Both the position numbers and the translations under genes were made by a program. Below, in pieces: positions 1 through 64,000 of a DNA stretch of 64,000 nt (position 1 is its first letter; every line of letters starts with the position of its first letter). The notes below the pieces were generated by a model that was given only the letters and a program-made list of their open reading frames with translations, did no database searches and was not told the DNA's origin. The stretch lies in NCBI RefSeq assembly GCF_964213995.1, contig NC_135808.1:24614001-24678000 (forward strand). Direction: 5' to 3'. Origin of the DNA: Mustelus asterias (lineage: Eukaryota).

Positions 1-164
1 GGATATTACAGGAGGTTGGGCACCGTGGAATATCAGAGGATGGAGAGAGCCTGGTGTATCCAAGAAACAATGCTTTTCACTGTGTACCAATACATGTGAC
101 AATAATAAATCACATCAAATATTACAGTAGGACTGGACCCAGTGCATCCTGGAAGTTTACTTCA

Positions 165-2803: not shown

Positions 2804-3234
2804 GGTATGAACTGTGTTGATAAATATTGGGAGCTGATCCTTCTAACTGGGATATTCCCGCTGGATTTAGCTGTACAATCTGGTGGGTGGGCTGTGAGCT
2901 CAGTGTCTGTCTCTCGCTCTATAGTCACTAAAGAGCAGCTCATCCAATCCAACACTGAGCTTTGAGACTGGCCTTCTGGAGACGGCTGTTCCTGTACAGT
3001 CTGAGGGTGGAGACATTGTGGGTGTTGAGGTGTCGAGACATCCGGAAACATCTCACCCTGGACAGCCTCCTCTGAGCTGCTCAATTTCCTGAAGGAATTT
3101 GTAACTCCCAGACTTTTCCCTGAAGTTGGTCACTGAGCTGTGCCGCTCCCACAGGTTTTTATTTTAGTCGTGTTTTGTGATGAGTCTGATCATTAGCTGG
3201 ATGTTTGGGGCGTGGAGTAGAGTTTAGGAGTTAA

Positions 3235-5137: not shown

Positions 5138-5229
5138 GGGTCTGATGGGTTTTGCTAGTGTTTGGGGTCTGCTGGGTTTAGCTGGTGTTTGGAGGTCTGA
5201 TGGGATTTGCTGGTGGTGTGTGGTTGGAA

Positions 5230-6890: not shown

Positions 6891-7249
6891 TAGGCGTGAG
6901 GGGTCTGATGGATTTTGCTGCTGGTTTTTGTGGGGGTCTGATGGGTTTTGTTGGGTGTGTTCCAGCTCTGCTGGCTTTGCCTCAGTTTTTCTTTCTCATC
7001 CCCAGTGCCCTCCAGTGCATTCCAGGGTTTGTAATCTAGGAACACCAGTTCCCAAGAACAGCAGCGGGAGAGGATGAGAGAATGAGGGAAGATGTGATTT
7101 CATCAAGGTGACAGCGACCGACTGATTCAAGCTCCACATATGTGATTCTGTTTAAATGGAACTGTGATGATGGTTTGGAAGTAATTGCTATATCTGGAGC
7201 TGCACTTTCTGAGCTATTCTGATCTGAGCTGCTTATTCTGCACAGACAC

Positions 7250-8170
7250 TAGAGGGCGATCTTATGAAAAATATTCTCTGTCCAGAAAGAGCATGAAAAT
7301 GGGAGAGTTTCTGATCCGTGTTTCAGGCGTATCCAAATCTACAATCTTATGCACTTGTTTCTCACCCTTGTAGGGGGAGGGGGCAGGTCTTAAATAACCA
7401 GAATGCTGCCTGAAAGCAGCAGAGGACACCATTGCGCATCTGCAGGTCCCTCTGCTCTGAGCTGCAGAGAGACCTGTCACTCAGCCTCTGCTGCTTTCAC
7501 CAGACCTCCATGGCCTAAACACGGACTCCCCAGCTGCCACGGCGGTCCGTGGCCTAATGCAACCCCTGATGGTCGGACCAATTGACCCCGTGACACCCTA
7601 CATGTCCGGACAGACCAAACCGCGCCTCTGGGACAGATTGAACCCCGTGACCCCCCTCCCCCTAATTCGGACCGACTTTCCCTGTCCATCCCACCACCGA
7701 TCGCAATGCAGTAGCCCCCGCTACTTCTCTCACTGATGGCAAATACTCAGTGGCAGTAGCCCCCCCACACCCCAAATTGCAAATGCATAGCGTGCAGCGC
7801 CCCGCCCCCATCACCACAGGTTGGTCCCACCCCAGTAGAGCCCCCCTCCAAATAATCAGGCTCCACACCCTTCCCACTCCCACTGCCTGGTGCGCACTTC
7901 GAAGATACCAGGCTGGCACTGCCCGCAAGGCACTCCCCCCAACCTCTCGGGGTGGCTTCAATGGCTTCTGGATCCACGAGCGAGGCATCGGGTCTGGTCC
8001 CTGTTGTGATTCTCGCTGGAGTGAACCTCTCCCGTGAGGCCACAGAGACGAGAGCCCAGATGATTGCGCCGCGGGCTCGCTCATTTTGTTCTAAACAGGT
8101 TTTAAATGTAGTCAAGTATTTTATTCAGCCTCGCGCCGCAATGTGTGAGAAATCGGGTGCGAATCTCATC
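7250..8170. repeat. GC-rich interspersed repeat, possibly a non-autonomous DNA element (paralogue ~26040-26955; absent from unit C)
   Basis: GC-rich block present in units A and B but not at the matching place after gene C; no recognisable protein. Confidence 0.4.
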
Positions 8171-9096
8171 TGTATTGAACTCATGAATTCCAATATCTTC
8201 TGCCCTTTCCTGATTTTTTCTCTTAATGTCTGTTATTCATTGGTGAGTGTGTTTGTGTCACATCCCCCCTTCCCAAGCACTCTGTCTGGGGAAATAACAA
8301 ACATTATTGAAATATCAGAGCTTTTGTATCAAACTGTCATCTGCAACTCCAAATGTCAGATCGCGGTAAATTTCCAATTCTTGTCACTGTTGGAAATATT
8401 GTTACACTTTGCAGTATTGGACACAATTGTTACCTGTATGTGTGTGTGTGTTATTAAAACAACAGAAAAGGTTTATTCTGCTCGGAGCTGAATGGGTTAA
8501 TTCTAAATTAAAACACATTTGGTGAAGGAATTCACTGTCACCGCGATTTCAGAAAGTGACTGGGTTACAATGTTCTCAGAGTAATGGCGGTTTCAGCAGA
8601 ACAAAGATATTTCTTCATCTCTTGTGGATTCACCAATTCAAACTGGATACTTCCGAATAAAAACCTTGGAGCAAAATGGATTAGAAGATAAAGTCCCAAT
8701 TGTTCCCCAGGGTTGTTTTTAAATGGAGATTTTAAAAACAAGAATAATCCATGAACAATCACCTTCAATTCATTCCTGAATTTGAAATTACACCATTAAA
8801 GCTTAAAAAAAATGACCCCACTCTGACAGATGTGAATTTGTATCTGGATTAGAGATCCCACATGTTTCACCCATTTCAACAGAGTTTCATTGTAACGGCA
8901 ACAAGCTCCCAGTTTAAAAACTTTTAAACTGTTCTCCCCCTTTAGACCTCACCATTTTGAGGAAAACACAGAGTTGGAGCTGGTCTGAAGGAACAGCAAC
9001 ACAGAGCATTCACACAGCCTTTTCTCATTCACTAACAGGAAGTTTACACACACACATCTGTCCACACAATTCTTTCTCACATCACTTCAAGTTTCA

Positions 9097-9980
9097 CATT
9101 TGGAGGAAAATGTAACTGGATTGATTAGTCAGTTTGCGGACGACACAAAGGTTGGTGGATTTGCGGACAGCGATGAGGACCATCAGAGGATGCAGCAAGA
9201 TGTAGATCAGTTGGAGACTTGGGTGGAGAGATGGCAGGTGAAGTTTAATCCAGACAAATGTGAAGCAATGCATTTTGGAAGGTCTAATACAGATAGGAAA
9301 TATACAGTAAATGGCAGAACCCTTCAGAGTATTGATAGCAAAGGGATCTGGGTGTACAGGTACACAGGTCACTGAAAGTGGCAATGCAGGTGGAGAAGGT
9401 AGTCAAGGCGGCATATGGCATGCTTACCTTAATTGGCTCTTGGAATATCGTGTTCCATTCTGGTCGCCACACTACCAGAAGGATGTGGAGACTTTGGAGA
9501 GAGTACAGAAAATATTTACCAGGATGTTGCCTGGTATGGAGGGCATTAGCTATGGGGAGAGGTTGGAGAAACTTGGTTTGTTCTCACTGGAGCGACGGAG
9601 GTTGAGGGGAGGCCTGATAGAAGTCGACAAGATTATGAGGGGCACGGACAGAGTGGATAGTCAGAAGTTTTTTCCCAGGGTGGAAGAGTCAATTACTAGG
9701 GGGCACAGGTTTAAGGTGCGAGGGGCAAGGTTTAAAGGAGATGTACAAGGCAGATTTTTTTTAAAAACAAAGAGTAGTGGGTGCCTGGAATTCGTGGCCG
9801 GGGGGAGGGAGTGGAAGCGGGTATGGCAGTGACTTTTAAGGGGCATCTTGACAAGTACATGAATAGGATGGGAATAGAGGGATATGTTTCCCGGAAGAGT
9901 AGGGGGTTTTAGTTAAGTTAGGCAGCATGGTTGGTGCAGGCTTGGAGGGCCGAAGGGCCTGTTCCTGTGCTGTAATTTTC
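9097..9980 (+). mobile_element. 5'-truncated CR1 LINE, specific to unit A
   Basis: ORFs with FADDTK, FWSPHYQKD and TRGHRFK; it interrupts sequence that is continuous at ~27880 and ~48930. Confidence 0.92.
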
Positions 9981-14583: not shown

Positions 14584-14720
14584 TTTAAATCCTATTTTGT
14601 GTCCAATCAGATTGAGGCTCAGTGTAAACAGGGAAAGACAGAAGGAGTGAGTTGAGAAGATCACCTTTCTTTGAAAAAGAGTTTCCTCCAAATGTTTCCC
14701 CCAACATGAGGGAAGCAGCA

Positions 14721-17700
14721 ATGATTGGACTGATAGAGCTGGTCCTTCTGTGTGGAGAGGTGTCTGCAGGTGAGTGATGGGGTGTGAGAGGGGCAATGCC
14801 AGGCTGGGTAATGGGGCATTAACCCTGGGTCAGTGAGTGATGGGGTGTGAGAGAGGCAATGCCAGGCTGGGTGGAGGTCTTGCTCTCGGTTTGGAATCAG
14901 TGTTTGGGGTTCATGCCCTGATCTGTGTGTGTGTGTGTGTGTGTGTGTGAGGGTGTTGGTGTTTTTAGGGTGTCTATCCTGAATTCTCTCTCTCTCTATT
15001 TCAGGCTCTCACTCTCTCCGGTATTTCTTCACGGGAATGACTCCGATCCCGGGTTTCCCGGAGTTTGTGGTTGTCGGTTCTGTGGACGGTGTCCAGTTTG
15101 TTGTGTACGACAGCGATCGGAGGGAGCTGATCCCCCGGGAGCAGTGGATGGTGGAGAGCGAGGGTCGGGCAGCCTGGGAGCGGAAGAAGATCTTCGCACA
15201 GGAGCGGGCGATGCGTTTCAAACGTGCATTTCCACTGCTCATGTCCGACACCAACCAGACAGGAGGTGAGTGCTCACTCTCCCAGCACCCGGGGATCCAG
15301 GTGGGAATGAGGAGAAACCCAGAGTGGATCAGGAACCGAGAGCCAGAGGCTGATTGGCTGCGATTGGAGATGTGACAGGAAATGTGATTGGCTGTGAATG
15401 TGTGGAAGGATTGTTTCCAGGGAGGCTGCCTCTGATTGGCTGTGTGTGAGTGGAGGAGGTGGGGGGTGGGGGGGCGAGGGGCGGGAGCAGTTGACGGTGA
15501 TTGGCTGTTAGGATGAGATTGCCCAGTGAGACTGGTTCTGATTGGCTGTTTGTGTTTCTGATCCACAGGGATCCATGTCTGCCAGATAGTGACTGGCTGT
15601 GACCTGAGCGATGATGGGACCATGAGTGGATTCAGCCAGTACGGGTGGGATGGACATGATGTTCTCAGCTTCGACAAGGATCACATGGTGTGGGTGACCC
15701 CGGTCACATGGGGGAAGAGCATCAAAAACTGGTGCAACCGGCAGACTGGCAACATTCAGCAATGGAAACATTACCTGGAGGTGGAGTGTATCGAGTGGCT
15801 GAGAAAATACCTGGAGTATGGACAGAGAGAATTGAGAGTCTGTGAGTGAGGGGGGAGTGAGAGTCGGTGAGTGAGGGGGGAGTGAGAGTCGGTGAGTGAG
15901 GGGGGGAGTGAGAGTCGGTGAGTGAGGGGGGAGTGAGAGTCGGTGAGTGAGGGGGGAGTGAGTGAGAGGGGAGTGAGAGTCGGTGAGTGAGGGGGGAGTG
16001 AGAGTCGGTGAGTGAGGGGGGGAGCGAGTGTGGGGAGAGCGAGTGTGGGGGGGGTGAGTGTGAGCGAGGGTGGGGGGAGCGAGTGTGGGTGAGGGTGGGG
16101 GGAGCGAGTGTGGGCGAGTGTGGGGGGAGCGGGTGTGGGCGAGGGTGGCGGGCGGGTGTGGGCAAGGGTGGGGGGAGCGGGTGGGGGCGAGGGTGGGGGG
16201 GCGAGGGTGGGGGGAGCGAGAGTCGGTGAGTGAGGGGGGATTGAGAGTCGGTGAGTGAGGGGGGAGTGAGAGTCGGTGAGTGAGGGGGGAGTGAGAGTCG
16301 GTGAGTGAGGGGGGAGTGAGAGTTGGTGAAGGGGGTGATGCCGGGACTCTTATCTCGAGGTTCCTGTACTGACTCCTCTTTCTTTCTCTCTCAGTTGGCC
16401 CCGTCGTGTCCTTTACCCGTCTGGGTGATTCTAACCGGCTGTCCTGTGCCGTCATCGGGTTTTACCCTCAACCCATCGAGGTGAATCTGTGGAGAAACAG
16501 AGTGGTGATTGATGAGACTCTGTCCAGTGGGATCTTACCCAATCACGACAGCACCTACCAGATCCGGAAATGGGTAGAGTTTGATCCAGAGGACCAGGCC
16601 GAATATTCCTGTCGGGTGGAACACAGCGGGATGAAGGAGACACTGGTGGTGATTTACGGTAAGACTGTTTCTCACTGTTAGAGAGGACCCAGCCTCAGAC
16701 CAGGATCACAGGAGTGAGGGTCAGTGCTGAGCTGTCAACCCAGGATATCGAGAGAGGGAAATAAATATTATTCAATGCGTTATATATCATGGTTCCACAG
16801 TGCAACATGATACAGCGGATCATTGGATATTGGGATCGCACTGGGCCTGGTGTAACATTGGACACGAGTGTCGGTCTGGGCCTGGGGTATTCTGGGATAT
16901 TGCAGTATAGTGGGGCCCAGTGTATCCTGGGATATTGCAGCCTGTCAGGGCCTGGTGAATCCTGGGATATTACAGGAGGTTGGGCACCGTGGAATATCAG
17001 AGGATGGAGAGAGCCTGGTGTTTCCAAGAAACAATGCTTTTCACTGTGTCCCAATACATGTGACAATAATAAATCATATCAAATATTACAGTAGGACAGG
17101 ACCCAGTGCATCCTGGAAGTTTGCTTCAGTCAGATTAAGATCAGTATTCAGAGAAATAATGGAATTCCTTCTATTGGAGACAATTCATGAAAATCTAGAA
17201 TCAAATACTATAACAATGAATATTCAGCATGGATTTTGAAATGGAAAATCTTGTTTTACTCCACTTAGTGAATTTTTTGAGGATGTAACAGAGGGAATAG
17301 ACAATGGAAATGTAATAGATATAATATCATATAATTTTTTTAATGTAATAGAAAAGGGGGTTCGTGATGGACTGATTGACAAGGTGAAAGCATGTGGAGT
17401 TAGGGGATGAGTGACAGAATGGATCACTCACTGACTTTGGGAGAGAAAGCAGAGAGTGTGAGTAAAGGGTGTTTCAGAGTTACAGAAAGTGTTCCACAAG
17501 GATCAGTGCTGGGATCACCGCTGTTCACAACTTACACTCCATAACTTGGATATTGGAATCAAAAATACCATTTCTTAATTTGCAGATAACACCAAATTGG
17601 GGGAATTATTTGATATTGAGGAGAAGTGTATTAAATTAATAGGACATGAATAAACTTGAACAAATAGTTGGTGAATAAAGTTCAGCACAGATAAACGTGA

Positions 17701-19702
17701 AGTATTTTTCAGTTAATGATGAATAGGGAGGGTTGAGGAACAAAGGGATCTTGATGTACAAATACACCAATCAGTAAACATAGAGTTACAGGTTAGACAA
17801 TAAACAAAATACAATCGAAAACCAGGGTTGATTTCTCGAGGGATAGAATTGTAAAGTAGGGATTTTATTGCTAAACCTGCATCAAACCTTGGTTAGACCA
17901 CATTTAAAGACCGTGTGCAGTTCCGGTCACCATTTCATACAAAGGATATAGAGTCAGGGGAGAGAGTGTCGAGAAGATTTACAGAGATTATTCCAGAAAT
18001 GAGTGGGTGGACATCTCAGGAAAGGATTCACCGGCTGGGTCTCTGCTCTCGGGAAAACAGAAGGCTGAGGGTTGATTTAATCGAGGATTTAAAATTAGGG
18101 AAGTTTTTTTTATAGAGCGGACACATCGAGAGTGTTCCTCTTGTGGGAAGAGCATATCCAGTGGCCATCAATACAAGAAACCCAATGGGGAATTCATGAG
18201 AAACCTCTTCACCCAAAGAGTGATGAGAATGTGGAGCTCGCTGCTACAGGGAGTGGCTGAACTGAACAGTATAGTTTAAGGGGAGGATAGACAAGCAAAT
18301 GAGGGAGAGGGGAATAGAGTTAAAATGGTCGAATTAGATGAGGAATAATGGGAGGAGCCTCAGGTGGAACATTAACACCAGCATCAATAGATGGGCTGAA
18401 AGGCCATTTTCTATGTTGTATATCCTGTGTTTCCTGATTCACTCTCTCTCTGATTCACTCCCACATTTCTCTTTCTTTCTCTCTGATTCACTCTCTCATT
18501 CTGTCTCTCTGATCTTTCTCTGTCTCTCATTCTCTCTCTTCCTCACTCTTAGTTGCTCATCCTCTCTCTCATTCTCTCCCACTCGCTCACATTCTATTTC
18601 ACTCTGATTCTCACTTTTCCCTCTCCCTGATTCACTCAGTCTCTCTGATTCTCTCTCTCTAACAGAACCAAAGTCTCGCTCCCAGGTTGCTGTTACTGTC
18701 GGGATTGTGGTCGGGGTCCTCGTGCTCATCGCTCTCATCATTGTGGCTGTCGTCATCTACAACAAGAAAGGTAGGAATTGGAGGGAAAAGAGCGGTGGGT
18801 GAACTGTAGTGGATCCAGGCAGTCCGGGAGGCTGGAATTGATTCGTGCCATGACTAGCCTTTCGAATCATTTCATAATGATGGATGTCAGATCCACCGGA
18901 TGACAGCTCACTGGGGGCAGGGATTCTGGGAGAGTATTCCAGGGTGGCGGTGGCTCAGGCTGTGGGTCTCAGGTTGGTGTGGGGGTGGGGAGGGGGTGGG
19001 TGGGCGGGTGGAAGAGTTGCAGGGGTTGGGATAGGGACAGTAAGGGGCTCATGATAAAGGGGGAGTGTCTGAGAATTGTGGGAAGGGCCACAAATTGGAT
19101 GAGGACTTCAGCGTATCAGTGAGGGCTCGGGTAACAGTGAGGGTCTAGGGACAGGAACCGGAGTGTGGGTCCAGGGTCAGCGTGTGAGTGAGGGTCCAGG
19201 GTCAGGGTGGGAGTGAGGGTCTCTGGTTGTGGTGGGAGTGAGGGTTCAGAGTTGTGTTGTAGGGGCTCAGTGCGAGTGAGAGTTCCAGCCTCTGTCTCTG
19301 ATTTTCTCTCAGTCTCGTCTCTCACTGAGCATTCCATGTTTTACAGGGAGAGGGAAGAGCAACTACAATCCTGCAAATAGTAAGCTGATCATCAAACATT
19401 GTCCCTGTGCAACTGTGTACATGATTGTTCATTCTGTTTCAAATATAGTGTGTGCGTGTGCGTGTGCGTGCATCGTGCGTTTCTGTGTGGGTGTGTGGGC
19501 TTCTGTGTGTCGCCGTTAGTATGGGTGTGTGAGAACCTCTTTCTCTGTGTCTGTCTGTCTATGTCTCTCTCATTCTCTCATTATCATATCCACAGTCTCT
19601 GCCTCTGTCTCTCTGATGTTGAACAATGTTTTAACACCTCTTCTTCCTTTAACAGCTTCTGATGATGGGGATTCCTCATCCAGATCCTCCACAAGTACCT
19701 GA
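14721..19702 (+). CDS. MHC class I heavy chain gene B (nonclassical-type), complete, 343 aa: join(14721-14769,15005-15265,15569-15841,16395-16658,18666-18770,19347-19379,19656-19702); alternative in-frame ATG at 14706
   Basis: All introns GT-AG and phase 1; 1032 nt open. Leader [16 protein letters not shown], alpha1 GSHSLRYF...NQTG, alpha2 with C101/C164, C1-set alpha3 (GFYP, YSCRVEH), TM, Tyr-containing tail. Confidence 0.93.
15005..15265 (+). CDS. Gene B exon 2 (alpha1)
   Basis: [87 protein letters not shown]. Confidence 0.95.
15569..15841 (+). CDS. Gene B exon 3 (alpha2)
   Basis: GIHVCQIVTGCDLSDDG...[16 protein letters not shown]...KNWCNR...YLEVECIEWLRKYLEYGQRELRV. Confidence 0.95.
15842..16330 (+). 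repeat. 25-bp G-rich minisatellite (GTGAGTGAGGGGGGAGTGAGAGTCG)n in intron 3 of gene B
   Basis: Units start at 15842, 15867 and 15892; the middle of the array is degenerate. Confidence 0.95.
16395..16658 (+). CDS. Gene B exon 4 (alpha3, Ig C1-set)
   Basis: LSCAVIGFYPQPIEVNLWR...ILPNHDSTYQIRKW...YSCRVEHSG. Confidence 0.95.
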
Positions 19703-20497
19703 GGTATGAACTGTGTTGATAAATATTGGGAGCTGATCCTTCTAACTGGGATATTCCCGCTGGATTTAGCTGTACAATCTGGTGGGTGGGCTGTGAGCTC
19801 AGTGTCTGTCTCTCACTCTATAGTCACTAAAGAGCAGCTCATCCAATCCAACACTGAGCTTTGAGACTGGCCTTCTGGAGACGGCTGTTCCTGTACAGTC
19901 TGAGGGTGGAGACATTGTGTGTTTTAACCTGTAGAGACATCCGGAAACATCTCACCCTGGACAGCCTCCTCTGAGCTGCTCAATTTCCTGAAGGAATTTG
20001 TAACTCCCAGACTTTTCCCTGAAGTTGGTCACTGAGCTGTGCCGCTCCCACAGGTTTTTATTTTAGTCGTGTTTTGTGATTTGTCTGATCATTAGCTGGA
20101 TGTTTGGGGTGTACAGTAGAGTTTAGGAGTTAAGCTGGTGATTGGTGGTCTGATGGGTTTAGCTGGTGTTTGGTGCTCTATTGGGTTTAGCTGGTGTTTG
20201 CGGCTCTGATGAGTTTAACTGATGTTAAGGAGTCTGATGGGTTTAGCTGGTGTTTGGGGATCTGATGGGTTTAGCTGGTGTTTGGGGGTCTGATGGGTTT
20301 AACTGATGTTAAGGAGTCTGATGGGTTTAGCTGGTGTTTGGGGATCTGATGGGTTTAGCTGGTGTTTGGGGGTCTGATGGGTTTAACTGATGTTAAGGAG
20401 TCTGATGGGTTTTGCTGGTGTTTGGGTATCTGATGGGTTTTGCTGGTGTTTGGGGATCTGATGGGTTTTGCTGGTGTTTGGGGGTCTGATGGGTTTT

Positions 20498-22588
20498 AAG
20501 AAGAAAGAATAAAGAGCAATACAGCACAGGAACAGGCCCTTCGGCCCTCCAAGCCCGTGCCGCTCCCTGGTCCAAACTCGACCATTCTTTTCTATCCCTC
20601 CATTCCCACTCCGTTCATATGGCTATCTAGATAAGTCTTAAACATTCCCAGTGTGTCCGCCTCCACCACCTTGCCTGGCAGCGCATTCCAGGCCCCCACC
20701 ACCCTCTGTGTAAAATATGTCCTTCTGATATCTGTGTTAAACCTCCCCCCCTGCCTTCACCTTGAACCTATAACCCCTCGTGAACGTCACCACCGACCTG
20801 GGGAAAAGCTTCCCACCGTTCACCCTATCTATGCCTTTCATAATTTTATACACCTCTATTAAGTCTCCCCTCATCCTCCGTCTTTCCAGGGAGAACAACC
20901 CCAGTTTACCCAATCTCTCCTCATAACTAAGCCCCTCCATACCAGGCAACATCCTGGTAAACCTCCTCTGCAGGCTCTCCAAAGCCTCCACGTCCTTCTG
21001 GTAGTGTAGTGTGGCGACCAGAACGGGACGCAGTATTCCAAATGTGGCCGAACCAACGTTCTATACATCTGCAACATCAGACGCCAACTTTTATACTCTA
21101 TGCCCCGTCCTATAAAGGCAAGCATGCCATATGCCTTCTTCACCACCTTCTCCACCTGTGACGTCACCTTCAAGGATCTGTGGACTTGCACACCCAGGTC
21201 CCTCTGCGTATCTACACCCTTTATGGTTCTGCCATTTATCGTATAGCTCCTCCCTACATTATTTCTACCAAAATGCGTCACTTCGCATTCATCAGGATTG
21301 AACTCCATCTGCCATTTCTTGGCCCAAATTTCCAGCCTATCTATATCCTTCTGTTGCTTCTGACAATGCTCCTCACTATCTGCAAGTCCTGCCAACTTTG
21401 TGTCGTCCGCAAACTTACTGATCACCCCAGTTACACCTTCTTCCAGATCGTTTATATAAATCACAAACAGCAGAGGTCCCAATACAGAGCCCTGCCGAAC
21501 ACCACTAGTCACAGGCCTCCAGCCAGAAAAAGACCCTTCCACTACCACCCTCTGTCTTCTGTGACCAAGCCAGTTCTCCACCCATCTAGCCACCGCCCCC
21601 TTTATCCCATGAGATCCAACCTTTTTCACCAGCCTATCATGAGGGATTTTTTTAAACGCTTTACTAAAGTCCATATAGACCACATCCACGGCCCTTCCCT
21701 CGTCAACCATTCTGGTCACTCCTTCAAAAAACTCCACCAGGTTAGTGAGGCATGACCTCCCTCTCACAAAACCATGCTGACTATCATTAATGAGTTTATT
21801 CCTTTCTAAATGCGCATACATACTATCTCTAAGAATCTTCTCCAACAACTTCCCCACCACGGACGTCAAGCTCACCGGCCTATAGTTACCCGAGTTATCC
21901 TTCCTACCCTTCTTAAATAATGGGACCACATTAGCTATCCTCCAATCCTCTGGGACCTCACCTGCGTCCAGTGACGAGACAAAGATTTTCGTCAGAGGCC
22001 CAGCGATTTCATCTCTTGTCTCCCTGAGCAGCCTTGGATAGATTCCATCAGGCCCTGGGGATTTGTCTGTCTTTATATTCTCCAACAAACCTCACACTTC
22101 CTCCCTTATAATGGAGATTTTCTCAAACGGTTCAACATTCCGCTCCGAGACACTCCCAGTCAACACATCCCTCTCCTTTGTGAATACCGACGCAAAGTAT
22201 TCATTTAGGATCTCCCCTACTTCTTTGGGCTCCAAGCATAATTCCCCACTTTTGTCCCTGAGAGGTCCGATTTTTTTCCTGACAACCCTTTTGTTCCTAA
22301 CGTATGAATAAAATGCCTTGGGATTCTCCTTAATCCTGTCTGCCAAGGACATTTCGTGACCCCTTTTTGCCCTTATAATTCCCCGTTTGAGTTCTTTCCT
22401 ACTTTCTTTGTACTCCTCCAGAGCTCCCTCCGTTTTTAGCTACCTGGACCTAACATACGCCTCTCTTTTCTTTTTGACCAGTCCCTCAATTTCCCTGGTT
22501 ATCCACGGTTCTCGAATCCTACCCTTCCTATCCTTTTTTACAGGCACATGCCTGTCCTGTAGCCCTAACAACTGTTCCTTAAAAGACT
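20498..22588 (-). mobile_element. Relatively young 5'-truncated CR1 LINE with a 405-aa RT ORF (20871-22088), specific to unit B
   Basis: KSPGPDG, NYRPVSLTS, SQHGF, DFSKAF, QGSVLGP and FADDTK motifs. Confidence 0.95.
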
Positions 22589-23019
22589 GGTGTTTGGGGC
22601 TCCGATGGGTTTTGCTGGTGTTTGGGGGTCAGATGGATTTTGCTGGTGTTTGGGGTCTGATGGGATTGGCTGGTGTTTGGGGCTCTGATGGTTTTTGCTG
22701 GTGTTTGGAATTATGATGGGTTTAACTGGTGTTTGGGGCTCTGATGGGTTCAGCGGGTGTTTGGGGCTCCGATGGGTTTAGCTGGTGTTTGGGGCTCTGA
22801 TGGGTTTAGCTGGTGTTTGGGGATCTGATGGGTTTTGCTGGTGTTTGGGGCTGTGATGGGTTTAGCTGGTGTTTGGGGCTCTGATGGGTTTAGCTGGTGT
22901 TTGGGGGTCTGATGGGTTTTGCTGGTGTTTGGGGCTCTTGTGCGTTTAGCTGGTGTTTTGGGGGTTTGATGGGTTTTGCTGGTGTTTGGGGGTCTGATGG
23001 GTTTTGCTGGTGTTTGTGG

Positions 23020-23934
23020 TCACAGAGTCATAGAGGTTTACAGCATGGAAACAGGCCCTTCGGTCCAACTTGTCCATGCAGCCCTTATATTTTTTTAAAC
23101 ACCCCGAAACTAATCCCAATTGCCCGCATTTGGCCCATATCCCTCGATGCGCATCGTACCCATGTAACTATCTAAATGCTTTTTAAAAGATAAAATTGCA
23201 CCCACCTCTACTACTATCTCTGGCAGCTTGTTCCAGACACTCCCTATCCTCTGTGTGAAAAAATTGCACCTCCTGGACACTTTTATATCTCTCCCCTCTC
23301 ACCTTAAACCTATGCCCTCGAGTTTTAGACTCCCCGACCTTTGGGAAAAGATATTGCCTCTCTACCTTGTCTATGCCCCTCATTATTTTATAGACCTCTA
23401 TAAGGTCACCCCTTAGCCTCCTACACTCCAGAGAAAAAAGTCCCAGTCTATTCAGCCCCTCCTCATAACTCAATCCATCAAGTCCCGGTACCATCCTAGT
23501 AAATCTTTTCGGCACTCTTTCTAGTTTAATAATATCCTTTCTATAATAGGGTCACCAGAATTGCATACAGCATTCCAAGTGTGGCCTTACCAATTCCTTG
23601 TACAACTTCAACAAGACGTCCCAACTCCGTATTCAATGTTCTGACCAATGAAACCAAGCATGCCGAACGCCTTCTTCACCACTCTGTCCACCTGTGACTC
23701 CACTTTCAAGGAGCTATGAACATGTACCCCTAGATCTCTTTGTTCTGTAACTCTCCCCAATGCCCGACCATTAACTGAGTAACTGCTGCCCTGGTTCAAT
23801 CTACCAAAATGCATCACCTCGCAGTTGTCTAAATTAAACTCCATCTGCCATTTGTCAGCCCACTGGCCCAATTGATCAAGATCCCGCTGCAATTGGAGAT
23901 AACCTTCCTCACTGTCCACCATGCCACCAATCTT
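23020..23934 (-). mobile_element. CR1 LINE, duplicate of 4225-5137
   Basis: Same breakpoints and same ORFs. Confidence 0.92.
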
Positions 23935-24746
23935 GGTCTGATGGGTTTTGCTCGTGTTTGGGGTTTAGCTGGTGTTTGGAGGTCTGATGGAATTTGCTGC
24001 TGGTGTGTGGTTGGAATGTTGAAGGATAGAATATTTATGACTGAGAGCGAGGCCATTCAGCCCATCATATCCCTTCCTGTTCATGAAGAACTCTCCTGCT
24101 TAATCTCACCTCCTGTACTCGATCTGTAGCTCTGTCGATCACAGCTCTTCATATCGACGTCCAAGAATTGATTCAATGTGGTGAGAGTTTCTGCCTCTAC
24201 CATCCTTTCAGACAGTGCTTCAGCTGTCGTCTGTCTGGTGTTGTTACAATTCTAGCAAAGCCATTCTGCTGTCTGTCTCAACTGATGAAAGAAAAGCATG
24301 TTATGTACCTTCTTTACCATGTAATTAACATGTCCTGAAAACTTTCCCAATCTGTGGACATGCACTCCTGGATCCCTCTGTTCCTCCACATTACTCATTA
24401 TCCTCCCAGTTATTAGGGATTCCCTTTGCCTTGTTCATCCTCCCGAAATCCATCACGCCTCACTGCTCCGGACTGAATTCCATTTTCCAATGTTCTTCCC
24501 AACTGCCCAGGCCATCTCTATCTTCCTGCAATCTGAAGCTTTCCTCTTCACTGACACCCACACAGATAATATTTGTACCTCTGTAAACTTCTTTATCATT
24601 CCTGCTGCATTTGAATCTAAATGATTCACATGAACTACAAAAAGTGAGGGTGTGAGTGCTGGGTTCTGTGGAACCCCCACTGGTAACAAGAAGTCTTGTT
24701 TAGGTCTGAGAAGTCTCACAACATCAGGTTAACATCCAATTCGGAA

Positions 24747-24783
24747 TCACGAGCTTTCGGAGAACTGCTCCTTCGTCAGATGA
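24747..24783 (-). ncRNA. Minimal hammerhead motif, duplicate of 5959-5995
   Basis: Identical core sequence. Confidence 0.75.
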
Positions 24784-27700
24784 GTGATGGTCAGTCCAAC
24801 GCCGGCATCTCCACATCATGGACATCATTCTAGTCGCAATCAACCCCTTACCCCTTTGCTTCCTGCCACTGAGCTAATTTGGGGTCTGATTTGTCAATGT
24901 CTCTTGGATCTCGATGAGTTTTACATTTCTGACCAGCCTGCCATGTGGGACCTTGTCCAAAGCATTATTAAAATGCATGTTGACCTTGTCCACCTCACTG
25001 CCCTCATCAACCCTCCTTCTCACCTCTTCCAAATTTTCAGTCAGAAAGCTTGAGATGAGCTCCCCTTAAATCCACGCTAACTTTCCTCGACTAATCTGTG
25101 CCTTTCTCAATGAAGGTTTGTACCGTTCCTCATAATTGGTTCCAACAATGTTCCCACTGCCGAAGTTACACTAACTGGTGTATAATTACTCAGATTGCCC
25201 CTTCTCTTTTCAATCCATGGTATAATGTTGGCAGTCATTTAATCTTCTTCCACACTCCTGCAGCCCGGGAGGAATGATTCTGATGATCAGAGCCTCTGCA
25301 ATTCCCTCCTTTGCTTCTTTTAACCCGGTGATTTACCATCTTTCAAAGTTATAAAATCCCTGAATACATCATCTCTTACAATGTTTATCTGATGCAGTAA
25401 TTCACACACTTCTTCTTTAAGTGCAATGTCAGCATTGCTCCCTGTTTCCCAAAGACAGTGGCAATGTATTTATTCACAACCTCAACACGTTCTCCCTCCT
25501 CTCTCACAGACTATCTTATTGGTCTCCACCAGGCCTTACTCTTTCCTTATCCTTTTCTCTTCAGGGACTGATAGAACATCCTTGGAGGTTCCTTGATTTT
25601 TCTTGCCAGTATTTTGTCGTGCCCCCTCTCCTTTCCCAGTATTCCTCTCTCAGTATCTCTTCCAGGTTTCTGCATTATTAGGCGTGAGGGGTCTGATGGA
25701 TTTTGCTGCTGTTTTTTGTGGAGGTCTGATGGGTTTTGTTGGGTGTGTTCCAGCTCTGCTGGCTTTGCCTCAGTTTTTCTTTCTCATCCCCAGTGCCCTC
25801 CAGTGCATTCCAGGGTTTGTAATCCAGGAACACCAGTTCCCAAGAACAGCAGCAGGAGAGGATGAGAGAATGAGGGAAGATGTGATTTCATCAAGGTGAC
25901 AGCGACCGACTGATTCAAGCTCCACATTTGTGATTCCGTTTAAATGGAACTGTGATGATGGTTTGGAAGTAATTGCTATATCTGGAGCTGCACTTTCTGA
26001 GCTATTCCGATCTGAGCTGTTTATTCTGCACAGACACAAGAGGGCGATCTTATGAAAAAAAATTCTCTGTCCAGAAAGAGCATGAAAGCGGGAGAGTTTC
26101 TGACCCGTCTTTCAGGCGAATCCAAATCTACGATCTTATGCACTTGTTTCTCACCCTTGTAGGGGGGAGGGGGCAGGTCTTAAATAACCAGAATGCTGCC
26201 TGAAAGCAGCAGAGGACACCATTGCGCATGTGCAGGTCCCTCTGCTCTGAGCGACAGAGAGACCTGTCACTCAGCCTCTGCTGCTTTCACCAGACCTCCA
26301 TAGCCTAAACACGGACCTCCCCAGCTGCCTAATGCAACCCTTGATGGTCGGACCAATTGACCCCGCGACACCCTACATGCCCGGACAGACAAAACCGCGC
26401 CTCTGGGACAGATTGAACCCCGTGACCCCCCCCCCCCCCCCCAATTCGGACCAACTTTCCCTGTCCATCCCACCACCGATCGCAATGCAGTAGCCCCCGC
26501 TACTTCTCTCACTGATGGCAAATACTTAGTGGCAGTAGCCCCCCCACACCCCAAATTGCAAATGCATAGCGTGCAGCGCCCCGCCCCCCCCGCCCCCATC
26601 ACAGGTTGGTCCCACCCCAGTAGAGCCCCCCTCCAAATAATCAGGCTCCACACCCTTCCCACTCCCACTGTCTGGTGGGCACTTCCAAGATACCAGGCTG
26701 GCACAGTCCGCAAGGCACTCCCCCCAACCTCTCGGGGTGGCTTCAATGGCATCTGGATCCACGAGCGAGGCATCAGGTCTGGTCCCTGTTGTGATTCTCG
26801 CTGGAGTGAACCTCTCCCGTGAGGCCACAGAGACGAGAGCCCAGATGATTGCGCCGCGGGCTCGCTCATTTTGTTCATAACAGGTTTTAAATGTACTCAA
26901 GTATTTGATTCAGCCTCGCGCCGCAATGTGTGAGAAATCGGGTGCGAATCTCATATGTATTGAACTCATGAATTCCAATATCTTCTGCCCTTTCCTGATT
27001 TTTTCTTTTAATGTCTGTTATTCATTAGTGAGTGTGTTTATGTCACATCCCCTCTTCCCAAGCACTCTGTCTGGGGAAATAACAAACATCATTGAAATAT
27101 CAGAGCCTTTGTATCAAACTGTCACCGCGATCTGACATTTGGAGCTGCAGATAAGTTTCCAATTCTTGTCACTGTTGGAAATATAGTTACACTTTGCAAT
27201 ATTGGACACAATTGTTACCTGTGTGTGTGTGTTTTATTAAAACAACAGAAAAGGTTTATTCTGCTTGGAGCTGAATGGGTTAATTCTAAATTAGAACACG
27301 TTCGGTGAAGGAATTCATTGTCACCGCGATTTTAAAAAGAGACTGGGTTACAATGTTCTCAGAGTAATGGCGGTTTCAGCAGAACAAAGATATTTCTTCA
27401 TGTCTTGTGGATTCACCATTTCAAACTGGATACTTCCGAATAAAAACCTTGGAGAAAAATGGATTAGAAGATAACGTGCCAAATGTTCCCCAGGGTGATT
27501 TTTATGAAGATTTTAAACACAAGAATAATCCATGAGCAATCGCCTTAAATTCAGCTCCTGAATTTGAAGTTACACCATCAAAGCTTAAAAAAAACGACCC
27601 CACTCTGACAGATGTGAATTTGTATCTGGATTAGAAATCCCGCATGTTTCACCCGTTTCAACAGAGTTTCATTGTAGCGGCAACAAGCTCCCAGTTTAAA

Positions 27701-32334: not shown

Positions 32335-33673
32335 TTCAGTCCTATTTTGTGTCCAATCAGATTGAGGCTCAGTGTAAACAGGGAAAGGCAGAAGGAGTGA
32401 GTTGAGCAAATGGCCTTTCTTTGAAAAAGAGTTTCCTCCAAATGTTTCCCCCAACATGAGGGAAGCAGCAATGATTGGACTGATAGAGCTGGTCCTTCTG
32501 TGTGGAGAGGTGTCTGCAGGTGAGTGATGGGGTGTGAGAGGGGCAATGCCAGGCTGGGTACTGGGGCATTAACCCTGGGTCAGTGAGTGATGGGGTGTGA
32601 GAGGGGCAATGCCAGGCTGGGTACTGGGACATTAACCCTGGGTCAGTGAGTGATGGGGTTTCAAAGGGGCAATGCCAGGCTGTGTGGAGGCCTTGCTCTC
32701 GGTTTGGAATCAGTGTTTTGGGGTTCATGCCCTGATCTCTGTGTGTGTGTGTGTGTGTGTGTGAGGGTGTTGGTGTTTTTAGGGTGTCTATCCTGAATTC
32801 TCTCTCTCTCTATTTCAGGCTCTCACTCTCTCCGGTATTTCCTCACGGGAATGACTCCGATCCCGGGTTTCCCGGAGTTTGTGGCTGTCGGTTATGTGGA
32901 CGGTGTCCAGTTTGTTGTGTACGTCAGCGATCGGAGGGAGCTGATCCCCCGGGAGCAGTGGATGGTGGAGAGCGAGGGGCTCGAGTCCTGGGAACAGAAG
33001 AAGAAGCTCACACAGGAAGGGGAGCGATGTCTCAAAGATAATATTCAGACCCTCATGTATCGAACCAACCAGTCGGGAGGTGAGTCTTCAAACTCCCAGC
33101 ACTCAGCCTCTTTCTCAGGATGCAGGGCGTATGGGTCAGAGTGGGAGAAACTGGGAGCGGATCAGGATCTGGGACTGGGGGCTGAGGTTGTGCATGAGCT
33201 CTGTCAGGTCTGTTGGTCAATTGAATCTGATTGTGTGTGTTTGGTGGTTTTCCCTCTAGTTGGATTGGGCCGGATTGGCTGTGTGTGTGTGTGTGGTGGC
33301 TGGACCTCCAGTGGGAACGGATCTGTTTGGGTGGGTTCATGGTGAGTGCAGCTTTTATTGGGACTGGCCCTGATTGGCAGGTTATCTTTCTAATCCACAG
33401 GGATCCACATACACCAGCTGATGACTGGCTGTGACCTGAGTGATGATGGGAATACGACTGGATTCAACCAGTATGGGTGGGACGGACTAGATTTCATCAG
33501 TTTTGATAAGGATCTTCTGGTGTGGGTGACCCCCGTCCCTTGGGGAGAGATCATCAAACAAAAGTGGGAGGGCAGCACGGGCATTAACCAGCGATGGAAA
33601 CGTTACCTGGAGGTGGAGTGTATCGAGTGGCTGAGGAAATATCTGGAGGACGGACAAAAATTACTGAGAGTCG

Positions 33674-34410
33674 GTGAGTGAGGGCGGGAGTGAGAGTCGG
33701 TGAGTGAGGGGGGAGTGAGAGTCGGTGAGTGAGGGGGGAGTGAGAGTCGGTGAGTGAGAGTCGGTGAGTGAGGGGGAAGTGAGAGTGAGGGAGGAGTGAG
33801 AGCCAGTGAGTGAGGGGGGAGTGAGAGTCGGTGAGTGAGGGGGGAGTGAGAGTCGGTGAGTGAGGGGGGACTGAGAGTCGGTGAGTGAGGGGGCACTGAG
33901 AGTCGGTGAGTGAGGGGGGACTGAGAGTCGGTGAGTGAGGGGGGAGTGAGAGTCGGTGAGTGAGGGGGGAGTGAGAGTCGGTGAGTGAGGGGGGAGTGAG
34001 AGACGGTGAGTGAGGGGGGAGTGAGAGATGGTGAGTGAGGGGGGAGTGAGAGTCGGTGAGTGAGGAGGGGAGTGAGAGTCGGTGAGTGAGGGGGGGAGTG
34101 AGAGTCGGTGAGTGAGGGGAGTGAGAATCAGTGAGTGGTGGGGAGTGAGAGTCGGTGAGTGAGGGGGGAGTGAGAGTCGGTGAGTGAGGGGGGAGTGAGA
34201 GTCGGTGAGTGAGGAGGGAGTGAGAGTCGGTGAGTGAGGAGGGAGTGAGAGTCGGTGAGTAAGGGGGGAGTGAGAGTCGGTGAGTGAGGGGGGAGTGAGA
34301 GACGGTGAGTGAGGGGGGAGTGAGAGTCGGTGAGTGAGGGGGGAGTGAGAGTCGGTGAGTGAGGGGGGAGTGAGTGTCGGTGAGTGAGGGGGGAGTGAGA
34401 GTCGGTGAAG
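33674..34410 (+). repeat. 25-bp splice-donor minisatellite in intron 3 of gene C
   Basis: Regular tandem units filling almost all of the 801-bp intron. Confidence 0.95.
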
Positions 34411-59112: not shown

Positions 59113-59151
<39 letters not shown>

Positions 59152-60931
59152 ACTAATAGTGTGAAACTTGAAGTTATGAAAAATGAAGCCATTTTTTATT
59201 GCTGTTTTTTTTAAGGGGGAGGTGTGAGGATACTGTGCCTTTAAGAAATGTATCTATATCATGTTTCTTGTGAAGGGATTGTTTTCAACTTCAGCTCTGA
59301 TTACAGTGCCGATTTGCCCACAAACAGCAGCCCACATGCTGAGAGTGCAGAAGCATAATTTATCCCAGATAATGTTTCTTTTTGCTTTTATCTGAGCTGT
59401 TTTGTTTATTTTTTTGGGTTGTCCCTGGGGTTTCAGAGTAAGGTTTAATTCGGTTGATTGACAAGAGGAAGTCATATGCTGATGGGAAGAGCTAAGCTTA
59501 CAGGAAGACAAGCAGACAGTTGTCTGCCTGGACCTGCCAGAAGCATTATTCTCTCTCTCTTTCTCTAAAGACTGTAGTTTGGGACCTGCTCGAAAATAGG
59601 TCTCTCTCCAGAGGTGTTTTGGAGGCTGGAGATACCCAGCTCAGATACCCACATGTAAGGCTGTTTGCTGACTGATTTTCAGGAGGTGTTTATGTCTATG
59701 AGGAATATTGCTTAAATTGGAACAATTAGAAATAATCCAGCAGTTAAGAGTTGTATCTTGTCACATGTAAGAATTTCAGTTGGTAAAAGTTGAGGCTATT
59801 TCTTTTTGTTATAGTTAAACTGTACTGTTAAATAAAGTTTGTTTTGACAAAAGCTTCCTAGTGGGTCATTGGAATGACACCTCGAGTGAAACACTTTATC
59901 CTCACACGAATGTCAAAGTCAAAAAAGAGAGTTGGGGTCTGGTCTAAATTCATAACATGGAGTTTCTAATCTGGTGCCCAACGGTGGATGCTGGTGTTTT
60001 GTGTTCATACCTTGATCTCTCTCTGTTTTTCAGGTTCTCACTCTCTCCGGATTTCCGTCACGGGAATGACTCCGATCCCGGGTTTCCCGGAGTTTGTGCT
60101 TGTCGGTTATGTGGATGATCTCCGGGTTGTTGTGTACGACAGCGATCGGAAGGAGCTGATCCCCCAGGAGCAGAGGATGGTGGAGATCGACGGACATGAG
60201 GCTTGGGAACAGAAGAAGATTCTCGCACAAGAGCTGGGGATGATTGTCAAATTGTCTTTTCCGGTCTTCATTTCTCTGTCCCAGCAGACAGGAAGTGAGT
60301 CCTCACTTTCCCACCACTCGGGGGTGCAGGTGGGAAGAAACCAAGAATGGATCAGGAACTGGGAGCCAGAGGCTGATTGGCTACGATTGGATATGTGACA
60401 GCAAATTTGATTGGCGATCAATGAGTGGAGGGAATGTATCCAAGAGAGACTGGCTCGGATTGGCTGTGTGTGGAGGACATGAGATCCACTTAGTGTAACT
60501 GCCGCTGATTGGCTTTCTATGTGGTGGGAGGTGCCTCGCTTGATTTGATTGGCTCTTGATAGAATGGGTCTGGCTTCTGAGTGGAACTAGCTTGGATTGG
60601 CTGTGGGGGTGGGATCTCACATTGGGACTGACTCTAATTGGCTGTTTGTGATCCACAGGAATCCATGTTTTACAGATGATGACTGGCTGCAATCTGAGGG
60701 ATGATGGGACCACGAGTGCATTCAACCGGATTGGGTGGAATGGACAGGATGTGCTCAGCTTCGACAAGGATCACATGGTGTGGGTGACCCCAGTGACCTG
60801 GGGAGAGATCATCAAAAACAATCTTGACAGGGATACTGCCCAGAATGAGCGATTCAAACAATTACTGGAGGTGGACTGTATTGAGTGGCTGAGGAAATCC
60901 CTCGAGTTCGGACAGAGTGAACTGACAGCTG
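51323..60931 (+). CDS. MHC class I gene D (highly divergent nonclassical-type), 5' part: exons 51323-51371, 60034-60294, 60659-60931; alpha3 onward not in the window
   Basis: Leader identical to B and C; alpha1 261 nt and alpha2 273 nt, open, GT-AG, with C101/C164 retained. Intactness of the rest is unknown. Confidence 0.85.
51640..51860. repeat. ~44-bp tandem repeat (TCTCTCTGGGTGTTGGTGTTTTGGGGTTCACACCCTGATG) in intron 1 of gene D
   Basis: About 5 visible copies; the unit resumes after the LTR element at ~59985. Confidence 0.85.
51860..59983 (+). mobile_element. Decayed full-length Gypsy LTR retrotransposon (Gmr1-like INT-before-RT order) in intron 1 of gene D; LTRs ~51860-52605 and 59223-59983
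   Basis: Two diverged ~750-bp direct repeats, PPT AAGGGGGAGG at 59213-59222, integrase (YHPESQG, ~54160) upstream of RT (LDLLKGYW, ~58050) and RNase H ([13 protein letters not shown]). Confidence 0.88.
54927..57425 (-). mobile_element. LINE (L2/CR1-group) 54927-55890 plus 57105-57425, interrupted by a CR1 at 55893-57104, all nested in the Gypsy element
   Basis: [15 protein letters not shown] and MFADDCTIF in the outer element; DFQKAFDKV and FTDDTK in the inner one. Confidence 0.85.
60034..60294 (+). CDS. Gene D exon 2 (alpha1)
   Basis: [87 protein letters not shown]. Confidence 0.93.
60659..60931 (+). CDS. Gene D exon 3 (alpha2)
   Basis: [17 protein letters not shown]...[16 protein letters not shown]...IKNNLDR...[26 protein letters not shown]. 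Confidence 0.93.
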
Positions 60932-61809
60932 GTGAGTGAGGGGGGAGCGAGAATTGGTGAGTGATGGGGGGAGCGAGAGTCGGTGAGTGAGGGGGGGAGT
61001 GAGAGTCGGTGAGTGAGGGGGGGAGTGAGAGTCGGTGAGTGAGGGGGGAGCGAGAGTCGGTGAGTGAGGGGGGGAGCGAGAGTCGGTGAGTGAGGGGGGG
61101 AGCGAGAGCCGGTGAGTGAGGGGGAGCGAGAGTCGGTGAGTGAGGGGGGAGCGAGAGTTGGTGAGTGAGGGGGGAGCGAGAGTCGGTGAGTGAGGGGGGA
61201 GCGAGGGTCGGTGAGTGAGGGGAGAGCAAGGGTCGGTGAGTGAGGAGGGTTTGGGAATCAGTGGGTGAGGTAGGAGTGAGTGGGAATCGGTGAGTGAGGG
61301 AGGGAGTGAGAGTCGGTGAGTGAGAGGGGGGAGCGAGAGTCGGTGAGTGAGGGGGGAGGGAGAGTCGGTGAGTGAGGGGGGGAGCGAGAGTCGGTGAGTG
61401 AGGGGGGGAGCGAGAGTCGGTGAGTGAGGCGGGAGTGAGAGTTGGTGAGTGAGGGGGGGAGCGAGTGTCGGTGAGTGAGGGGGGAGCGAGGGTCGGTGAG
61501 TGAGGGAGGAGCGAGGGTCGGTGAGTGAGGAGGGTTTGGGAATCAGTGGGTGAGGTAGCAGTGAGTGGGAATCGGTGAGTGAGGGAGGGAGGGAGACTCG
61601 GTGAGTGAGGGGGGAACTGAGAGTCGGTGAGTGAAATGTGAGTGAGAGTCGGGGAGGGGGTGGGAATCAGTGGGTGAGGGGGTGTGGGAATCAGTGGGTG
61701 AGGGGGGAGTGAGTGGGAATCAGTGGGTGAGGTGGGAGTGAGTGGGAATCAGTGGGTGAGGGGGGAGTGAGTGGGAATCGGTGAGTGAGGGAGACTGAGT
61801 CATTGAGTG

Positions 61810-62572
61810 ACTCGGGACAGATAGAGAGAAAGGTAGAAAACACCTCCTGCATTTTGCAGAAAGCTGGAGGGAGATACTTATTTTCTATCAGCTCCCAGAC
61901 TGCAATTTCCAGACAGAGAAAGGGAGAGAGAAAGAGCTGCTCCTTCGTTTTTCAAATTGAAACAGCAACTGCCTGCCTGTCCCTCTGTAACCCAAACTGC
62001 TCCCATTGACATGATTTCATTCTTGCCAATCAACCTAATTACACCCGACTCTGAAACACCAGGAGAAAACCACAACATTTCACAAAACTGCATTAGCTCA
62101 GATTAAAACAAACACCCCAATACTTAGGACCAATTACTCTTCTGCATTATGTTGTGAAGTTTATGTTTTTAAAATGATAACACAATTGTAACAATTGGAG
62201 TTTTCTAAACAGCATTCCATTGGAATCGTGCTTTATTCGGTTTGTTAATTGTTTTGTTAACCTGATTGCTGTTAGTTAGATAAATAAAGTGTTACTTGTT
62301 GCTTTACAGAGGGAATCTCAGGTAGTTATTTTGATTTGACCACTAAAAGTTGCTGAAGAGCAGATATTAACCCTTCTCACACACACTTTAACAGATTATG
62401 AAGGGACGTAATGCTCTTTCAGTGGCTGAGTATCAGTTCTCAGAGAGGAAATCAACTTCCACTTCGTAACAATTATCAGCATGTGGGCTGCTGCAGTAAT
62501 CAGAGTTGACACATAAAACAGTCCCTTTAGAAGAAATGCAAATACATTCCTTAAAAGCACAGTTCTGACACA
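61810..62572 (-). mobile_element. LTR fragment related to the intron-1 Gypsy LTR, itself interrupted by another LTR-like piece (~62150-62471)
   Basis: Reverse complement resembles 59223-59600; the inner piece resembles 39480-39686. Confidence 0.6.
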
Positions 62573-63104
62573 GGGGACTTAGAGTGAGTGAGGGAGGGAG
62601 GGAGTGAGATTCGGTGAGTGAAGGAGGTGAGAGAGCCGGTGAGTGAGGGGGGGGAGTGAGAGTTGGTGAGAGAGGGGGGAGCGAGAGTCGGTGAGTGAGG
62701 GGGGAGTGAGAGTCGGTGAGTGTGCGGGAGTGAGAGTCGGTGAGTGAGGGGGGAGTGAGAGTCGGTGAGTGAGGGGGGAGTGAGAGTCGGTGAGTGGGGA
62801 GGGGAGTGGGACTCTCACTCCCGCTCACTCACCGACACTCACTCCTCCCTAACTCACCCACTCTCACTCCCCCCTCACTCAACGACTCTCACTCCCCCCT
62901 CACTCACCGACTCTCACTCCCCCCTCTCTCACCGACTCTCACTCCCCCCCCTCACTCACCGGCTCTCTCACCTCCTTCACTCACTGAATCTCACTTCCTC
63001 CCTCCCTCACTCACTCTAAGTCCCCTGTGTCAGAACTGTGCTTTTAAGCAATGTATTTGCATTTCTTCTAAAGGGACTGTTTTATGTGTCAACTCTGATT
63101 ACTG
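62494..63104. repeat. ~610-bp fold-back inverted duplication, centre near 62810
   Basis: CAGTAATCAGAGTTGACACATAAAACAG... is mirrored by ...CTGTTTTATGTGTCAACTCTGATTACTG; minisatellite polarity flips at 62811. Confidence 0.92.
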
Positions 63105-64000
63105 AGGGGAGGAGTGAGCATCGGTGAGTGAGGGGGGAGTGAGAGTCGGTGAGCGAGGGGGGAGTGAGAGTCGGTGAGCGAGGGGGGAGTGAGAGTCGGT
63201 GAGTGAGGGGGGAGTGAGAGTCGGTGAGTGAGGGGGGGAGTGAGAGTCGGTGAGAGAGGGTGGAGTGAGCATCGGTGAGTGAGGGGGGAGTGAGAGTCGG
63301 TGAGTGAGGGTGGAGTGAGAGTCGGTGAGCGAGGGGAGAGTGAGAGTCGGTGAGTGAGGGGGGAGTGAGAGTCGGTGAGTGAGGGGGGAGTGAGAGTCGG
63401 TGAGTGAGGGGGGGAGTAAGAGTCAGTGAGTGAGGGGGGTAGTGAGAGTCGGTGAGAGAGGGTGGAGTGAGAGTCGGTGAGTGAGGGGGGAGTGAGAGTC
63501 GGTGAGTGAGGGGGGGAGTGAGAGTCGGTGAGAGAGGGTGGAGTGAGAGTCGGTGAGTGAGGGGGAATGAGAGTCGGTGAGTGAGGGGGGAGTGGGTGTC
63601 GGAGGGTGAGGGGGGAGTGAGAGTCGGTGAGTGAGGGGGGAGCGAGAGTCGGTGAGTGAGCGGGGAGTGAGAGTCGGTGAGTGAAGGGGGAGGGAGGGTC
63701 GGTGAGTGAGGGGGGAGTGAGAGTTGGTGAGTGAGGGGTGGAGTGAGAGTTGGTGATTGAGGGGGGAGTGAGAGTCGGTGAGTGAGGGGGAACTGAGTCG
63801 TTGTGCGAATGTGAGTGAGGGGGGAGTGGGAGTCGGTGAGTGAGGGGGAACTGAGTCGTTGTGCGAATGTGAGTGAGGGGGGAGTGAGAGTCGGTTAGTG
63901 AGGGGGGAGTAGGAATCAGTGGGTGAGGGAGGAGTGAGTGGGAATCGGTGAGTGAGGGGGGAGTGAGAGTCGGTGAGTGAGGAGGGAGTGAGAGTCGGTG

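Follow-up and report, generated by a model that had tools for sequence, protein, structure and literature searches.

Our analysis of a 64,000-nt window of the Mustelus asterias genome, by which we mean the whole stretch of DNA analysed, shows that the junction of exon 3 and intron 3 has given rise to a 25-bp minisatellite within intron 3 of B, C and D, three MHC class I genes in tandem. This array is probably a tolerated product of slippage, with extra donors that stay nearly silent as the spliceosome likely takes the first donor that it meets. A previous reading, made from the letters alone, had seen in the array a copy-number switch of protein output; that switch is unsupported.

Results

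Four tandem class I genes lie in the window: B and C are complete, A is represented by its 3' end and D by its 5' part (Table 1). Gene B has an intact reading frame, and its alpha2 exon is 100% identical to the named M. asterias protein P0003, which differs from the gene B translation by one alpha3 residue. Gene C carries a 1-nt deletion, a frameshift, in exon 4 (34475-34737); the resulting frame is 278 residues long, lacks a transmembrane segment and equals the named model P0022. P0003 retains three of the eight conserved peptide-anchor residues of class Ia (UAA), placed on the 6LUP chain, and by this measure the B-type protein falls outside classical class Ia. Judged by domain identity, the genes of the window are assigned to the UBA lineage, as P0003 is nearer to P0015 (54/87, 58/90 and 65/86 identical over the three domains) than to the nurse shark 6LUP chain (47/87, 49/90 and 47/88) in all three domains. 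P0015 serves as the UBA reference on a match by eye of its alpha1 and alpha3 to a sequence labelled G. cirratum UBA in the PMC10751288 supplement. The shark UBA class Ib lineage, described in the same paper as a multicopy non-classical class I cluster, resembles the present locus in its multicopy tandem arrangement (four genes in the window) and in its lost anchor residues; its hallmark is a cluster flanked by c4 and rxrb. We found no description of an intron 3 array in work on this lineage (PMC10751288 and PMC12562908), and none of an intron 3 repeat in the shark class I literature searched, which was largely that outside subscription journals.

A recent tandem duplication links genes A and B, which are 93-96% identical over several kb (1-9097 against 16965-27882) and have identical exons 5-7; arrays of a 28-bp repeat lie behind both. 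The array behind gene B is broken by a retroelement-like fragment on the minus strand (20874-22091, a 406-codon open frame). Intron 1 of gene D (51372-60033) is 8662 nt long, against 235 nt in B and 299 nt in C, and intron 6 of gene C contains 319 N at 42956-43274. In the named models P0001 and P0002, exons from adjacent class I genes are combined (alpha2-alpha1-alpha2-alpha3; two fused genes), and both are possibly annotation artefacts of the tandem cluster.

Table 1. Features of genes B, C and D in the window
Feature	Position	Strand	Remarks
Gene B exon 1 (leader)	14706..14769	+	in-frame stop directly behind this donor too
Gene B exon 2 (alpha1)	15005..15265	+	
Gene B exon 3 (alpha2)	15569..15841	+	T at donor position -1
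Gene B authentic donor	after 15841	+	TCT/GTGAGT
In-frame TGA met once the first donor of B is passed	15847..15849	+	
Gene B array	15833..16329	+	TRF: period 25, score 296, 19.5 copies, 76% matches
Gene B, 10 exact decoys TCG/GTGAGT	after 15866, 15891, 15917, 15942, 15982, 16007, 16225, 16250, 16275, 16300	+	
G-rich variant block in B array	16021..16216	+	4 canonical quadruplex motifs, mean G4Hunter score 1.91; exact decoys absent
Unique intron 3 tail of B, pyrimidine tract and acceptor	16325..16394	+	matches C at 70/70 aligned bases
Gene B exon 4 (alpha3)	16395..16658	+	264 nt
Gene B exons 5-7 and introns (transmembrane, cytoplasmic)	18666..19703	+	
Gene C array	33665..34408	+	TRF score 1225; 23 decoys with the authentic donor's 9-nt core
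Gene D intron 3, incomplete	60931..64000	+	array blocks, at least 48 exact decoys, insert ~61795-62565, inverted duplication 62494-63104

The sequence-only reading had placed the 25-bp array through intron 3 of B, C and D and had given intron lengths of 553 bp, 801 bp and more than 3 kb. Our measurements agree: intron 3 is 553 nt long in B (15842-16394) and 801 nt long in C (33674-34474), while in D it runs off the window after 3069 nt, which is thus a minimum length, and both TRF and the distribution of the unit confirm the array. Allowing up to four mismatches, the unit occurs 103 times in the window, and since every one of these copies (103/103) lies within the three intron-3 arrays, the array is not due to chance. 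In gene B it takes up 483 of the 553 nt of the intron (87%). The number of units differs between the paralogs B, C and D; short-read contigs collapse the array. The unit had been defined as the last 9 nt of exon 3 plus the donor. Its origin from the junction stands, whereas the exact match holds in C only, the last 9 exonic nt being off at the last base in B and at several in D (codons LTA). The exon ends of B and D have drifted, and the arrays keep the ancestral junction. The commonest unit is common to B, C and two of the three D blocks, and each unit bears a G6-7 run.

Besides its array blocks, intron 3 of gene D contains about 770 nt of non-array DNA. The inverted duplication in this intron has arms that are 97% complementary over 235 nt, about 85 nt of it non-array DNA. 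Folding of the pre-mRNA into a long hairpin is conceivable here, and the duplication is either a real fold-back or an assembly chimera. Intron 1 also opens with a repeat, a 63-bp unit from the exon-1 donor in 2-2.6 copies (14770-14895, 32520-32682 and 51372-51500). Its decoys are weak (73 vs 97), and it reaches a summed depth of 1700-4500 in the DNA-like sequencing runs treated below, with one contig of depth 75 in run X2.

The array had also been called prone to G-quadruplexes. With four G3+ runs and loops of up to 7-12 nt, or a G4Hunter score >1.5, as the criterion, this is true of the variant block of B, whereas the pure 25-mer array of gene C has no canonical motif and a G4Hunter mean of 1.25. 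Strong G-quadruplex potential is thus confined to the B variant block; motifs occur in introns 2 and 5 of gene B as well.

We counted 10 exact decoys in gene B and 23 in gene C; in D, as far as the window reaches, there are at least 48. The authentic donor of C has the same 9-nt core as the decoys, while those of B and D differ from it in their exonic bases. As had been noted for B, the real donor has T where the decoys have G, and the decoys lie closer to consensus: the donor consensus value is 72 for B, 85 for the decoys, 85 for C and 89 for D, on an approximate scale from a Shapiro-Senapathy table, which matched two of the five values printed in PMC1557585 and gave the others 3-7 points low. 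The predicted U1 pairing energy is -6.3 kcal/mol for the B donor and -10.2 kcal/mol for the C donor, the latter being equivalent to a decoy-type site. For comparison, the exon 6 donor of gene B has a value of 74. Among 28 aligned proteins, B is the only one with F at the exon 3 junction. RNA folding around the donor, computed without a shuffle control, gave weak structure and was uninformative.

What happens once the first donor is passed is readily computed. The reading frame runs through CE in B and through GE in C and D straight into a stop, and all of the listed downstream GTRAG positions of B intron 3 (35/35) fall behind this TGA. Use of a later donor ends the protein two residues past alpha2, with a stop after 201 codons, as the earlier reading had held for any downstream donor. 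A stop that lies more than 50 nt before a later junction makes a transcript an NMD target. The read-through stop is computed to sit 281, 386 and 419 nt before the later junctions, so that by this usual rule the donor-2 form of B would be an NMD target, in line with the NMD-type stop claimed before.

Is this stop a property of the array? All three exon-1 donors run into the same immediate stop, and outside the arrays 18 of 54 GTGAGT sites precede a stop-making dinucleotide, from which we conclude that the stop is generic, a by-product of a phase-1 GTGAGTGA donor. A phase-1 intron that starts with GTGAGT places a T at the start of the third codon, and TGA is present in each frame of the repeat. 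The in-frame stop is thus not special to the array and lacks the specificity, beyond the donor consensus, that would mark regulated unproductive splicing (an AS-NMD switch). Nor is an immediate stop universal, since the model P0029, whose alpha2 is identical to that of the named whale shark protein P0031, continues five residues into the intron.

Homologous proteins of at least 191 residues continue past alpha2 in 54 of 56 cases. One of the two exceptions is P0042, a named, UAA-like M. asterias protein of 196 residues that retains seven of the eight anchor residues and ends two residues past alpha2, with the CE ending of B; its short end may be either RNA-based or due to a missing exon 4. Short truncated proteins end exactly at the exon end in three of three cases and say nothing on read-through.

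Four of 21 listed sequencing runs, none of the 21 being recorded as RNA, were aligned to 14650-15900 at 85% likeness, so that joins to exon 4 become visible as loose ends. In X20 and X21, which come from the best-matching organism, introns and exons are covered alike, and these runs are DNA-like. The T at 15841 has a depth of about 10 of 532 in X20 and 8 of 644 in X21, similar to single B-type contigs; its presence in two DNA-like runs shows that it is not an assembly slip, although the runs may be from the assembly's own individual. Both runs carry the unit at a summed depth of about 20,000 against roughly 30-290 on the exons (we do not take summed contig depth as copy number), and one contig leads out of the array to the unique tail. 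Among the contigs listed, none covers the whole stretch 14650-15900.

X1 and X2 come from other shark organisms. In both, intron 1 is skipped at GT..AG, and these joints support the guess that both are RNA. Among the loose ends listed, those at 15837-15840 match the first bases of exon 4, and thus, among the joins listed, the first donor is the only one from which exon 3 of these other shark genes is spliced to exon 4. The last bin that is wholly exonic has a depth of 2348 in X1 and 489 in X2, whereas depth at 15841 is 0 in both, and the bin 15868-15900 has a depth of 7.2 in X1 and 0 in X2; the former value is close to the background in intron 2 of X1 (0.8-5.2 in four bins, with 214 in one G-rich bin). 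Array-like contigs have a depth of 13.7 in X1, where they do not cover 15841, and are absent from X2. In neither run does a contig cross the first donor, and the joins listed include none from exon 3 to exon 5; rare forms are lost from contigs, and donor-2 products would be hidden by NMD.

Discussion

Minisatellites that reiterate a donor are known from several human genes, and the shark array, with its boundary-spanning unit and reiterated donor, is of the same type as that in intron 7 of human F7 (IVS7). Borensztajn et al. (2006, PMC1557585) describe the latter as a 37-bp VNTR whose first monomer spans the exon-intron boundary and whose donor is reiterated downstream. In their minigenes, splicing kept exclusively to an upstream donor of value 74 even when later sites were raised to 82-91, among them TGG/gtgagt, one base from the shark decoy core; only a perfect downstream site competed. 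With a weak first and a stronger later donor, as in gene B, the first still won. There are differences: F7 has 5-9 copies identical to the authentic site, while the shark genes have 10 to at least 48 decoys and an authentic site that has drifted in B and D; the shark array sits in a multigene family; and the F7 donor has the -1 G that the B donor is without. The same source lists further donor-reiterating intronic minisatellites, using the first donor only in LMNB2 and PDGF and two extra donors in CBS intron 13 and interferon-inducible 6-16. The same unit length occurs in ABCA7 intron 18 (PMC5954066), where the donor is part of a VNTR of 25-bp units. There, one unit is retained in 2 +/- 1% irrespective of VNTR size, which leads to a premature stop and NMD, as one-unit retention would in the shark, and skipping of the downstream exon rises with VNTR length. 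The length effect in ABCA7 falls on the next exon rather than on decoy use.

We propose that a junction duplication older than the split of B, C and D expanded and was then homogenised among the paralogs, and that either exon definition or 5'-to-3' scanning would select the most upstream donor. The G6-7 run of each unit probably helps this choice: according to PMC1877881, when two sites compete in human reporters, intronic elements lying between them, G-rich ones included, repress the site nearer the intron, with a G-triplet control that was run on 3' sites. A small leak to donor 2 would bear a premature stop and be cleared by NMD, which would lower the cost of the array and need not be its purpose. 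First-donor dominance is favoured by the human cases, where F7, LMNB2 and PDGF use the first donor, CBS and 6-16 the first few, and the ABCA7 leak is independent of length; for sharks it would fit the first-donor joins of the RNA-like runs X1 and X2 and the proteins that continue past alpha2. Against it count the weak B donor with its lost -1 G and poorer U1 pairing, the CE ending of P0042, and the two extra donors used in CBS and 6-16.

Could the array instead matter for recombination? The earlier reading had proposed a hotspot separating groove from alpha3, and an array that acts as a shared homology block, promoting unequal exchange or conversion that sets old alpha1-alpha2 cassettes onto a homogenised alpha3, is possible, if doubtful, and compatible with tolerated slippage. 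Identity between B and C is 95-100% from intron 1 to about 15145 and 52-90% from there through exon 3 (72% over intron 2, 79% over exon 3), returns to 70 of 70 bases right after the array, and is 93% in exon 4 and 97% over the first 87 nt of intron 4. That B, C and two of the three D blocks have the same commonest unit would fit exchange too, as would the domain trees, in which alpha3 of the seven M. asterias proteins forms one group (88/90) and alpha1-alpha2 does not; within-species identity is 94% for alpha3 and 72% for alpha1 and alpha2. These trees cover 28 of 32 proteins (P0001, P0002, P0029 and P0032 were excluded, and P0022 also from alpha3), and the alpha3 tree is weakly resolved, with unsettled bootstrap. 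The identity step at the array is circumstantial support. A second step, just as sharp, occurs within exon 2 at about 15145, where there is no array. Moreover, with 483 of the 553 nt of the B intron taken up by the array, almost any crossover between exons 3 and 4 lands in it, purifying selection on alpha3 contributes, and homogenisation of alpha3, a general trait of class I genes, is reported for those of mammals in PMC1403747.

Viewed as a whole, the segment 15145-15841 of B against 32959-33673 of C is a diverged stretch between near-identical flanks, a mosaic with one boundary inside exon 2.

A second alternative is that gene B is a hypomorph, in which the G-to-T change at donor position -1 sends a sizeable share of transcripts through donor 2 to NMD, unregulated and as an early step of pseudogene decay. 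The drop from 85 to 72 in consensus value and from -10.2 to -6.3 kcal/mol in U1 pairing, the F found at this junction in B only, the frameshift already present in the neighbouring gene C and the stop of P0042 at the equivalent of the read-through stop all point this way. We nevertheless consider it unlikely: F7 donors of similar strengths set a precedent to the contrary (PMC1557585), the exon 6 donor of B reaches only 74 in an otherwise intact gene, and the named predicted model P0003 uses the first donor. Quite unlikely, in our judgement, is that the UBA array is a working part, both an exchange point that brings old groove cassettes onto a common alpha3 backbone and, in B, with its true donor now weaker than the ten copies, an element whose length sets the share of NMD or alpha1-alpha2-only product.

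Turning to the switch itself, we regard as very unlikely that repeat number tunes full-length protein against NMD or a secreted alpha1-alpha2 product, or, in a variant, that exon 4 is skipped in frame to a degree tuned by the length of the array. The position of the stop relative to the later junctions would suit it, as would P0042, an alpha1-alpha2-only model. So would the dependence of next-exon skipping on VNTR length in ABCA7 (PMC5954066), exon 4 being of a length, 264 nt, that keeps the frame when skipped, and the lower enzyme activity tabulated with the CBS VNTR in PMC1395315. Direct support is lacking, however: decoy use in ABCA7 is independent of length and F7 shows first-donor dominance; X1 and X2 join at the first donor and contain neither a read-through contig nor, among the joins listed, one from exon 3 to exon 5; the stop is generic and, as the five further residues of P0029 show, not always immediate; and since the alpha1-alpha2 product would come from an NMD target, little protein is expected. 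In the literature searched for length-tuned donor arrays, largely that outside subscription journals, we found nothing beyond ABCA7. Finally, that the arrays are an assembly artefact is hardly credible, for although intron 3 of D has a fold-back duplication and no listed contig spans 14650-15900, the units bear locus-specific variants, the DNA-like runs carry the unit far above exon depth and one contig runs from the array into the unique tail; only the exact unit counts rest on the assembly.

Most likely, the array adds an immune gene family of sharks to the known hosts of donor-reiterating minisatellites. It offers a natural series, with a donor that is weaker than the decoys in B, equal in C and stronger in D and with 10 to more than 48 decoys, in which the mammalian first-donor rule can be tested in cartilaginous fish, a use of modest value. 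If the array did drive groove shuffling or tune expression, it would provide a sequence-level mechanism for the diversification of non-classical class I genes.
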